Positions 1,576-7,344 are shown, counted from the first letter of the stretch. The stretch is DNA of 64,000 nucleotides from Escherichia coli (GCF_003334405.1 NZ_QOWM01000003.1), one strand, 5' to 3'. Notes: generated by a model from the sequence alone, not told the origin. A program made the numbers and translations.

Positions 1576-4500
1576 ATGCAAAGGAAAACTCTATTGTCGG
1601 CCTGTATTGCATTAGCTCTGAGTGGTCAGGGTTGGGCGGCAGATATCACAGAGGTAGAAACCACCACAGGTGAAAAGAAAAATACCAATGTGACTTGTCC
1701 GGCAGACCCAGGAAAACTCAGTCCGGAAGAGCTTAAACGCTTACCCTCTGAATGCTCTCCTTTAGTCGAACAAAACCTGATGCCATGGCTTTCCACAGGC
1801 GCTGCTGCGTTAATCACGGCCTTAGCCGTAGTGGAACTAAACGACGATGATGATCATCATCATCGCAACAATTCTCCACTCCCACCGACACCCCCTGATG
1901 ATGAATCAGACGACACTCCAGTTCCCCCAACTCCTGGCGGAGATGAGATAATACCGGACGATCCGGATGATACGCCTACACCTCCCAAACCGGTTTCGTT
2001 TAATAATGACGTTATTCTCGATAAAACAGAAAAAACGTTAACTATTCGCGATTCAGTTTTTACTTATACCGAGAATGCTGACGGGACTATATCTCTGCAA
2101 GATAGCAATGGTCGTAAGGCAACGATTAATCTTTGGCAGATTGATGAAGCGAATAACACTGTTGCCCTTGAAGGGGTGAGCGCAGATGGCGCAACGAAGT
2201 GGCAATATAATCACAACGGTGAGCTTGTTATTACGGGTGATAATGCCACAGTAAACAACAATGGCAAAACCACCGTTGACGGTAAAGATTCCACCGGTAC
2301 GGAAATCAACGGTAATAACGGGAAAGTGATTCAGGACGGCGATCTGGATGTCAGCGGCGGCGGTCACGGTATTGATATCACCGGTGACAGCGCGACGGTG
2401 GATAACAAGGGCACCATGACCGTCACCGATCCGGAGTCCATGGGTATCCAGATCGACGGTGACAAGGCCATCGTCAATAACGAAGGCGAGAGCACCATCA
2501 CCAACGGTGGCACCGGCACCCAGATTAATGGTGATGACGCCACGGCAAACAACAACGGCAAAACCACCGTTGACGGCAAGGATTCCACCGGTACGGAAAT
2601 CAACGGTAATAACGGAAAAGTTATTCAGGACGGCGATCTGGATGTCAGCGGCGGCGGTCACGGTATTGATATCACCGGCGACAGCGCAACGGTGGATAAC
2701 AAGGGCACCATGACCGTCACCGATCCGGAGTCCATCGGTATCCAGATTGACGGCGACCAGGCCATCGTCAATAACGAAGGCGAGAGCACTATCACCAATG
2801 GCGGCACCGGCACTCAGATCAACGGTAACGACGCCACCGCGAATAACAGTGGAAAAACCACTGTTGATGGAAAAGATTCCACGGGTACCAAAATCGCGGG
2901 CAATATCGGCATTGTAAATCTGGATGGTAGCCTGACTGTTACAGGCGGTGCGCATGGTGTTGAGAACATTGGTGACAACGGCACGGTTAACAACAAAGGA
3001 GATATTGTTGTTTCCGATACTGGATCGATTGGCGTGCTCATCAACGGTGAGGGGGCAACAGTATCCAATACGGGTGATGTTAACGTTAGCAATGAAGCGA
3101 CAGGGTTCAGCATCACAACCAACAGTGGGAAGGTTTCGCTGGCAGGCAGTATGCAGGTTGGCGATTTCTCGACCGGGGTAGATCTTAATGGCAACAATAA
3201 CAGCGTGACGCTGGCGGCAAAAGATCTAAAAGTGGTCGGGCAGAAAGCGACGGGCATAAACGTTTCTGGCGATGCGAATACAGTGAATATCACTGGTAAC
3301 GTTCTGGTTGATAAGGATAAAACCGCAGACAATGCGGCGGAATATTTCTTCGATCCATCCGTGGGTATCAACGTTTACGGCAGTGATAATAACGTGACGC
3401 TGGATGGAAAGTTAACTGTTGTATCAGACAGTGAGGTTACTTCTCGTCAGAGTAATTTATTTGATGGCAGCGCAGAGAAAACGTCAGGTCTGGTTGTGAT
3501 TGGCGATGGCAATACCGTTAATATGAATGGTGGACTTGAACTGATTGGAGAGAAAAACGCGCTTGCAGATGGGTCGCAGGTTACTTCCTTGCGCACAGGA
3601 TATAGTTATACCAGCGTTATTGTCGTTAGTGGTGAGTCGTCGGTATATCTGAATGGAGATACGACAATCAGCGGAGAATTCCCTCTGGGGTTTGCCGGGG
3701 TTATTCGGGTACAGGATAAAGCTTTGCTGGAAATTGGCAGTGGCGCTACGCTAACAATGCAGGATATTGACAGTTTTGAACATCATGGGACAAGAACCCC
3801 AGAACTTACTTATGCTGATTCCGGTGCGAAAATTGTTAATAAAGGTACTGTTGAAATTCAGAATTTAGGTTTTGCTTTTGTTACTGGTGAAAATACAACA
3901 GGTATAAATAGTGGCACGATCTCGTTATTACAAAATGGTAAAGATCCGGCACCGTCTCCCATTGTTTTACTGGCTACTAACGGAGGGAGCGCCACTAATG
4001 CAGGTACGATCACAGGTAAAGTGACGGAACAACATAGCGTATTTAACAAGTATTCAACGGGCACATCGAATTCATTTATTTTTAATAACGATGTCAGTAG
4101 CATAACAGGGTTAGTCGCTCAATCGAATAGCACAATTATCAATACTGACAGCGGCATCATTGATTTGTATGGTCGTGGTAGTGTCGGCATGCTTGCTATA
4201 GCAGATTCAACAGCAGAAAATCAGGGTAAAATTACACTGGATTCTATGTGGGTAGATGCAAATGACACTACCGCAATGCGAGATATAGCTAGCAACAGCG
4301 CCATTGACTTCGGTACAGGTGTGGGAGTTGGTACTGATAGTTATAGTGGTGCAGGGAAAAATGCAACAGCAATTAACCAATTGGGCGGTGTTATAACTAT
4401 TTATAACGCCGGCGCAGGTATGGCGGCCTATGGCGCCAGCAATACAGTTATTAACCAGGGGACGATTAACCTCGAAAAAAATGGTAATTATGACGATAGT

Positions 4501-7344: not shown

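Follow-up and report, generated by a model that had tools for sequence, protein, structure and literature searches.

BigA, which occurs in Salmonella and some E. coli, is labelled a "surface-exposed virulence protein" or autotransporter adhesin. In Celik et al. 2012 its passenger was described as "AIDA-I-like" and its barrel was grouped with NalP (PMC3419190); a 2022 review of autotransporter classification leaves BigA unmentioned, and a 2026 preprint still terms it a "candidate". For ydbA, a 2016 paper states that the gene is "an autotransporter pseudogene in MG1655" and is full-length in ~42% of phylogroup A (PMC4951805). In the literature we found no functional study of ydbA as an adhesin, or of its Pfam families, and no experiment on the expression, surface display or adhesion of YdbA, BigA or any other family member. 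A further point of reference is the autotransporter toxin VacA of H. pylori, whose N-terminal hydrophobic region carries GXXXG, is exported, and forms channels (PMC4926140).

We analysed the ydbA gene carried on a stretch of 64,000 nucleotides from Escherichia coli (GCF_003334405.1 NZ_QOWM01000003.1; hereafter the window). The YdbA that it encodes is very probably a monomeric autotransporter of the classical type (Va) and belongs to the BigA/YdbA family of Enterobacterales, its gene being an undisrupted natural allele of ydbA. That ydbA is intact in wild E. coli and a pseudogene in K-12 is already on record and, stated as such, matters little; the N-terminal module, comprising a hydrophobic segment, a His-containing stretch and a putative tether, is the sole part of the protein with some novelty.

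The ydbA locus and its alleles

The features of the locus are given below by window coordinates and strand.

1349-1414, minus strand: ynbG, an annotated 21-aa small ORF (WP_010723099.1) upstream of ydbA, listed for context only
1565-1569, plus strand: Shine-Dalgarno sequence AAGGA, 6 nt before the ydbA ATG
1576-7344, plus strand: ydbA, an uninterrupted ORF of 1922 aa and a stop
1576-1638, plus strand: Sec-type signal peptide, aa 1-21, assigned by rule, with predicted cleavage GWA/AD
1639-1776, plus strand: Cys-pair region, aa 22-67, with the motif C41-P-x5-L-x7-L-P-x2-C60 (C-x18-C)
1777-1839, plus strand: uncharged Ala/Gly/Thr-rich hydrophobic segment, aa 68-88 (LMPWLSTGAAALITALAVVEL)
1840-1992, plus strand: His/Asp cluster, then acidic Pro-rich linker, aa 89-139, net charge -13
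1993-2235, plus strand: BigA_N domain (Pfam PF25784), aa 140-220, all-beta (E 8e-33; AlphaFold2 pLDDT ~83-96)
2236-2895, plus strand: 2.2 tandem copies of a 294-nt (98-aa) unit with 90% matches, copy number strain-variable
2896-6045, plus strand: rest of the passenger, aa 441-1490, Gly/Asn/Thr-rich beta-strand repeats without a Pfam match
3795-3849, plus strand: stretch flanked by IS2 (3795-3799) and IS30 (3848-3849) in K-12, uninterrupted here
6046-6297, plus strand: BigA_beta sandwich domain (Pfam PF25783), aa 1491-1574 (E 2.7e-25)
6298-6504, plus strand: helical junction and predicted pore-spanning alpha-helix (aa 1626-1643), from AlphaFold2
6514-7341, plus strand: outer-membrane beta-barrel translocator, aa ~1647-1922, ~12 long strands, from Pfam, AlphaFold2 and Foldseek

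A sequence-only reading of the window had described ydbA as one continuous 1922-aa ORF, and this description stands: the ORF listing and the translation both gave a single ATG-initiated ORF at 1576-7344, free of internal stops. The gene had also been named correctly, being flanked by paaY/ynbG and pdxI/ydbD in the order paaX-paaY-ynbG / ydbA / pdxI-ydbD (megablast, 5,426 complete E. coli genomes) and 97.8-99.97% identical to the K-12 pieces. Its best match, in E. coli O141:H4 P13-6, differs by 1 nt (V1775A; 99.98% identity), the gene with this difference being annotated as intact in both P13-6 and strain 54, and an NCBI entry, WP_204763587.1, already holds the exact protein of the window; its 90%-identity cluster has 10,492 member sequences. 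An assembly artefact was rejected, as independent complete genomes carry the same ORF. Fragments lying at contig ends made up most of what a word-indexed protein search returned, since short-read assemblies break in the repeats.

In MG1655 ydbA is annotated as two pseudogene pieces (ydbA_1 and ydbA_2) with IS2 and IS30 between them; the split in K-12, which the earlier reading had stated, was confirmed when both insertions were mapped by their junctions, and alignment to K-12 and other E. coli genomes showed the window ydbA to be free of IS. In a blastn comparison of the window gene with K-12, gene nt 1-2224 fell upstream of IS2 and gene nt 2272-5769 downstream of IS30, the latter at 99.97% identity, while 55 nt (gene nt 2220-2274) formed an island between IS2 and IS30. 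The target duplication of IS2 is the 5-bp AACCC at gene nt 2220-2224 (window 3795-3799) and that of IS30 the 2-bp CT at gene nt 2273-2274 (window 3848-3849), with 50 bp between the two points of insertion (gene nt 2224 and 2274). With the sites now mapped precisely, excision in silico of both elements and of one copy of each duplication produced a 6063-nt K-12 ORF of 2020 aa with a single terminal stop, as long as the intact gene of the human isolate MSB1_9I. The K-12 gene is therefore otherwise undamaged, and would be a clean 2020-aa ORF were the two IS elements absent.

The distribution of split and unsplit copies was surveyed with a junction query of 301 nt across both K-12 insertion sites, searched in the 5,426 complete E. 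coli genomes. The segment was matched at an identity of at least 99% in 1236 of the 5426 and was uninterrupted in 851, and the split matches, among those listed, were K-12 laboratory strains. Thus the pseudogene state of K-12 is the result of two IS insertions that, among the matches inspected, are confined to laboratory K-12 derivatives. An intact ydbA CDS was annotated at all eight of the non-K-12 loci sampled (5769, 5859, 6063, 7239 and 7827 nt in length), several of these lengths being separated by whole multiples of 294 nt, and the 98-aa difference in length between the window and K-12 proteins equals one 294-nt unit, seen as a 294-nt offset in the alignment. Natural ydbA alleles vary chiefly in the copy number of the 98-aa repeat.

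Other lineages carry damage of their own: UM146 has a frameshift in ydbA, O157:H7 TW14359 has the gene as two separate ORFs, and all that strain 2018-02-2CC retains is a remnant of 387 nt with an IS1 copy on either side. Given that these disruptions and that of K-12 arose independently, the gene is evidently dispensable in many niches. The intact ydbA of the window is a natural and ordinary allele; since complete copies are common in natural isolates, and already known to be, the finding of an intact gene is correct but ordinary.

Passenger, translocator and constraint on the gene

Pfam PF03797 (Autotransporter beta-domain) matched aa 1696-1892 with an E of 3.5e-18, and an AlphaFold2 model of aa 1473-1922, built from 11 aligned homologues, reached a mean pLDDT of 81. 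It begins with a beta domain, which is followed by three short helices, then by a helix of 18 residues (aa 1626-1643, residues 154-171 of the model), and lastly by ~12 long strands. Foldseek matched this model to the translocators of AaaA, EstA, NalP, EspP, BrkA and Hbp (E 7e-10 to 3e-4), and the C-terminal residue of the protein is Phe (…NFKKTF). The C-terminal barrel claimed from the sequence was thus confirmed by the family match, by the predicted structure that had been proposed as a check, with its helix and strands, and by the comparison of that structure with solved translocators. At the level of sequence, phmmer found no match between the whole of YdbA and PDB entries at E <= 0.01.

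Upstream of the barrel the protein is built of repeats. The 98-aa unit reads as four rungs of ~24-25 aa, and the identity autocorrelation in the repeat region peaks at lags of 98, 49 and 24-25. No Pfam passenger family matched within aa 1-1200 or aa 901-1922, nor did passenger repeats of the AIDA or pertactin type at E <= 10 over the same two segments. The RefSeq labels among family loci include "pectate lyase-fold", and it is these labels, together with the periodicity (98, 49, 24-25), that suggest a beta-helix fold for the passenger. Repeat copy number probably sets the length of the resulting rod.

BigA_N, after the N-terminal linker, and BigA_beta, before the translocator, which together we took as the mark of the BigA/YdbA family, are both present. 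By analogy with that family, the 21-aa Sec signal peptide would bring YdbA into the periplasm and then be cleaved, and the C-terminal barrel would enter the outer membrane with the pore-spanning helix inside it. The passenger of ~1,600 aa would be threaded outward from its C- to its N-terminal end and would stay on the surface as a long rod built of repeats, its length set by their number, with BigA_N distal, followed by the 98-aa repeats and further rungs, and with BigA_beta at the base. Such a rod may serve adhesion or aggregation, as other large autotransporters do, and the N-terminal module would be exported with the passenger to a position beyond the rod tip and its BigA_N cap, on the acidic tether as a spacer. 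The export steps, the surface location and the role as an adhesin are those expected from the family.

Constraint on the gene was estimated as dN/dS by the method of Nei and Gojobori. The first 220 codons gave 0.115 against UM146 (dS 0.23), and the last 450 codons 0.065 against O157:H7 (dS 0.69) and 0.073 against UM146 (dS 1.6), values that indicate long-term purifying selection at both ends of the gene. The alleles are mosaic, their depth of divergence being very unequal along the gene, and values for sub-regions rest on few changes, that for the hydrophobic segment within E. coli (omega 0.75) coming from only 6 substitutions.

The ORF might be intact but cryptic, that is, silenced or functionless and decaying, in which case an intact frame would say nothing about a working adhesin in this strain. 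We regard this as rather unlikely. The independent disruption of the gene in K-12, UM146, O157:H7 and strain 2018-02-2CC speaks for it, but omega values of 0.07-0.12 between deeply diverged alleles argue for selection over the long term, and the junction segment is uninterrupted in 851 genomes and the CDS intact at every locus sampled. Laboratory culture leaves many E. coli autotransporters unexpressed, and AT-rich upstream regions in E. coli are often silenced by H-NS; the intergenic region upstream of ydbA (1201-1600) has a G+C content of 28%, and a scan of the upstream sequence found 11 promoter-like sites vs 10.7 expected from shuffles, no better than chance, whereas the ribosome-binding site ahead of ydbA is a good one. 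The description of the gene as potentially functional is reasonable, given that every domain is present and that dN/dS against divergent alleles is 0.07-0.12.

The N-terminal module

In the literature we found neither a description nor a study of the N-terminal module of BigA or YdbA. Read by rule, the N-terminus (MQRKTLLSACIALALSGQGWA/AD, the slash marking the predicted cut) shows the n, h and c regions expected of a Sec signal peptide and has small residues at -3/-1, the parts being MQRK, TLLSACIALALS, and GQGWA, the last followed by the A after the cut, and these parts are kept across the family in an alignment of its members (A2). On this rule-based reading the signal peptide is intact, as had been claimed. 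A lipoprotein signal (LSAC, residues 7-10) was rejected, as its Cys lies too near the N-terminus, and so was a long signal peptide of the ESPR type (~50-60 aa, N1-H1-N2-H2-C), since that of YdbA does not follow this layout and is an ordinary 21 aa.

In the region that follows, C41, P42, L48, L56 and C60 do not vary among 16 sequences with 27-46% identity to the window protein (A2), and the C-x18-C pair is a probable disulphide loop. A second hydrophobic segment begins 46 aa past the signal peptide, behind this acidic (net negative) Cys-containing region; it holds the most hydrophobic 19-mer of YdbA, with a Kyte-Doolittle value of 1.78 vs 1.34 for the signal peptide. The segment lies directly upstream of the linker and went unmentioned in the sequence-only reading.

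When aa 1-230 were scanned with HMMER against 1.84 billion representatives, 62 proteins were returned at E <= 0.001, the named matches coming from E. coli, E. albertii, Citrobacter, [Enterobacter] lignolyticus and Rahnella. Down to ~27% identity, 19 diverse family members share one N-terminal order: signal peptide, C-x18-C, uncharged hydrophobic run, His/Asp-rich stretch, and acidic Pro-rich linker. The uncharged run is Gly/Ala-rich and 14-28 aa long in all 19, and always contains the most hydrophobic 19-mer of its protein (KD 1.26-2.13). Its N-flanks are mostly acidic, with Lys or Arg in only 5 of the 19, and the 20 residues that follow it lack Lys and Arg in 16.

In principle, a TM-like segment behind a cleavable signal peptide could arrest export. 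A stop-transfer anchor in the inner membrane was rejected, the flank after the segment being without basic residues in 16/19. Given that a stop in transfer would strand the barrel in the cytoplasm, we infer that the segment is made to cross Sec instead. The module thus raises the question of how a TM-like segment crosses by way of Sec and then the type V pathway, and of its final location.

One answer would be that the segment acts on membranes: carried at the passenger tip by the Pro-rich tether, it would, like that of VacA, insert into a target membrane or drive helix-helix association, which would give the protein a role beyond passive adhesion. The uniform presence of the uncharged run in the 19 proteins, with acidic N-flanks and a following flank mostly free of Lys and Arg, fits passage through Sec and not anchoring in the inner membrane, and VacA supplies a precedent for an exported, channel-forming hydrophobic segment at the N-terminus of a passenger (PMC4926140). 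However, the YdbA segment has no sequence similarity to VacA and lies 46 aa behind the mature N-terminus rather than at it, and its simple biological-scale sum (+0.4 to +4.1 kcal/mol across the family) is marginal for membrane insertion. Motifs of the small-xxx-small type are weakly enriched in the hydrophobic segments, 113 being observed vs 95 expected from shuffles. An AlphaFold2 model of aa 1-250, from an alignment of 16 sequences, was confident over BigA_N but had a pLDDT <50 over aa 65-100; it showed no contact between the segment and BigA_N and no packing of the segment, which at such a pLDDT leaves the model uninformative as to role, and Foldseek of the same model against the PDB found nothing at E <= 0.001 for BigA_N. 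The segment's omega of 0.75 within E. coli, from its 6 substitutions, also counts against this reading. We consider the VacA-like reading improbable, and would give equally little weight to the broader picture of the module as a harpoon on a tether, membrane-active or self-associating at the adhesin tip, or as an anchor in the envelope. Were the module membrane-active or an envelope anchor, it would be a functional element new to type Va proteins.

The acidic, His- and Pro-rich linker that had been reported at about nt 1840-2000 is real. It runs from DDDDHHHRNNSPLPP to TPTPPKP (residues 90-139, nt 1843-1992) and contains 15 Pro and 13 Asp with a net charge of -13, and AlphaFold2 gave a pLDDT of <50 to ~60 over aa 89-139. 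In the 19 family members the linkers are acidic and rich in Pro, Asp and Gly, with lengths of 24-169 aa and net charges of -4 to -37, and 14 full-length orthologues from E. albertii vary in length solely by 3-16 copies of the 9-aa unit DDGG[ND]VTPP. Because composition is conserved while length is variable, and because of the copy-number variation in E. albertii, the linker fits a spacer or flexible tether, and the comparison lends support to the flexible stalk that had been suggested. Metal binding had also been suggested, but that the acidic His/Pro-rich stretch is a site for Zn, Ni or Ca instead of a spacer is very unlikely. In its favour, the 20 residues that follow the hydrophobic segment are 10.5% His vs 0.9% elsewhere (11.6-fold, by a binomial test that ignores sequence relatedness), and at least one His stands beside Asp runs there in 16 of the 19 proteins. 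Against it, the His residues do not keep fixed positions: three members have none in that stretch, and among close relatives H96 alone is invariant and the run is HHH or HH. The length of the Pro/Asp part, moreover, ranges over 24-169 aa and in E. albertii changes in the manner of a VNTR.

Comparison with known systems

YdbA resembles VacA in that, of all its segments, only one near the N-terminus has the length and hydrophobicity needed to span a membrane (PMC4926140). The two differ in that the segment of YdbA is internal, after the 46-aa Cys-loop region, without homology to that of VacA and without clear enrichment of tandem GXXXG, and in that VacA is a toxin whereas YdbA has no known toxin activity. 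The AIDA or pertactin-type passenger repeats by which Pfam would recognise a self-associating autotransporter of the AIDA-I type were not found in the window YdbA, and the "AIDA-I-like" character given to the BigA passenger was not reproduced.

The K-12 pseudogene belongs to the same locus and allele family and has the same domain order, with 97.8-99.97% identity over the aligned parts. It differs in carrying IS2 and IS30, neither of which is in the window allele, and in having 3.2 repeat copies vs 2.2, its reconstructed protein being 2020 aa long vs 1922 aa.

The predicted barrel of YdbA with its internal helix superposes on the type Va translocators (NalP, EspP, EstA, AaaA, BrkA and Hbp), whose passengers, in contrast, are proteases or esterases to which the YdbA passenger is unrelated.

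A further comparison is with BigA (for example WP_250251242.1). Against the NCBIfam model for BigA (NF033178, auto_BigA) the window protein scored 1073.9 bits vs a cutoff of 3400 bits, the best stretch covering only aa 1120-1922, and YdbA is therefore a relative of BigA, from a paralogous or sister lineage, and not BigA itself. The N-terminal 250 aa of BigA are only 44% identical to those of YdbA, and its linker is ~134 aa long and largely made of DDGGNTP units, whereas that of YdbA is 50 aa and non-repetitive. The architecture of the two proteins is nonetheless the same, both having a signal peptide, C-x(18-20)-C, a hydrophobic segment, an acidic Pro/Asp/Gly linker, BigA_N, repeats, BigA_beta and a barrel, and over the C-terminal 450 aa they are 83% identical.

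The N-terminal module of YdbA

The most hydrophobic stretch of the entire 1922-aa YdbA, a predicted type Va autotransporter of the BigA/YdbA family, is not the signal peptide, which ranks below it, but an uncharged segment within the N-terminal module:
1777-1839 (aa 68-88): Ala/Gly/Thr-rich hydrophobic segment, 46 aa past the signal peptide
A counterpart is kept in 19 of the 19 family members examined, and the segment stands in a fixed order: an invariant C-x18-C pair comes before it and a His/Asp cluster after it.

Length variation and allele divergence

In the 14 full-length E. 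albertii orthologues (P0034, P0084-P0096), which range from 1796 to 1913 aa, the linker is built from 3-16 copies of the 9-aa unit DDGG[ND]VTPP, and subtracting 9 aa for each copy from the total leaves 1769 every time. The length range of these proteins is therefore wholly accounted for by variation in the copy number of the linker unit.

Within E. coli, the repeat that differs in copy number among strains is one of 294 nt (98 aa) at 2236-2895 of the window, and the ydbA lengths of 5769, 6063, 7239 and 7827 nt (loci compared: L002, L005, L006, L011) are spaced by integer multiples of 294. A further allele, of 5859 nt, differs from that of the window by 90 nt.

The window allele (1576-7344) and those of UM146 and O157:H7 are also mosaic; synonymous divergence from UM146 is 0.23 over the first 220 codons and 1.6 over the last 450. 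This pattern suggests recombination inside the gene, or alleles of ancient lineage.

Several orthologues (e.g. UM146, L003 1152-7860, and many RefSeq records) carry the PGAP name "EntS/YbdA MFS transporter", a label that appears to reflect confusion of ydbA with ybdA and to have spread to thousands of records.

Surroundings and loss of the locus

Other features of the window are:
1349-1414, minus strand: ynbG, annotated 21-aa small ORF (WP_010723099.1), in the AT-rich stretch that precedes ydbA, on the strand opposite to that gene
24774-24837, minus strand: RydC sRNA (Rfam gathering-level match, 92.5 bits)
25397-25548, minus strand: sok, the antitoxin RNA in a hok/sok-type locus (Rfam gathering-level match, 109.7 bits)
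The first codon of ynbG encodes Ile under table 11, and the ORF therefore has a non-ATG start.

In strain 2018-02-2CC (L012, 2248-4140) a 387-nt ydbA remnant is flanked by two IS1A copies, which also truncate ynbC; a deletion mediated by IS1 has removed most of ydbA and runs through ynbB. In UM146 and O157:H7 (L003, L004) the entire paa operon is missing and ydbA directly follows ydbH-ynbE-ydbL, an arrangement consistent with the "region of heterogeneity" of PMC4951805.
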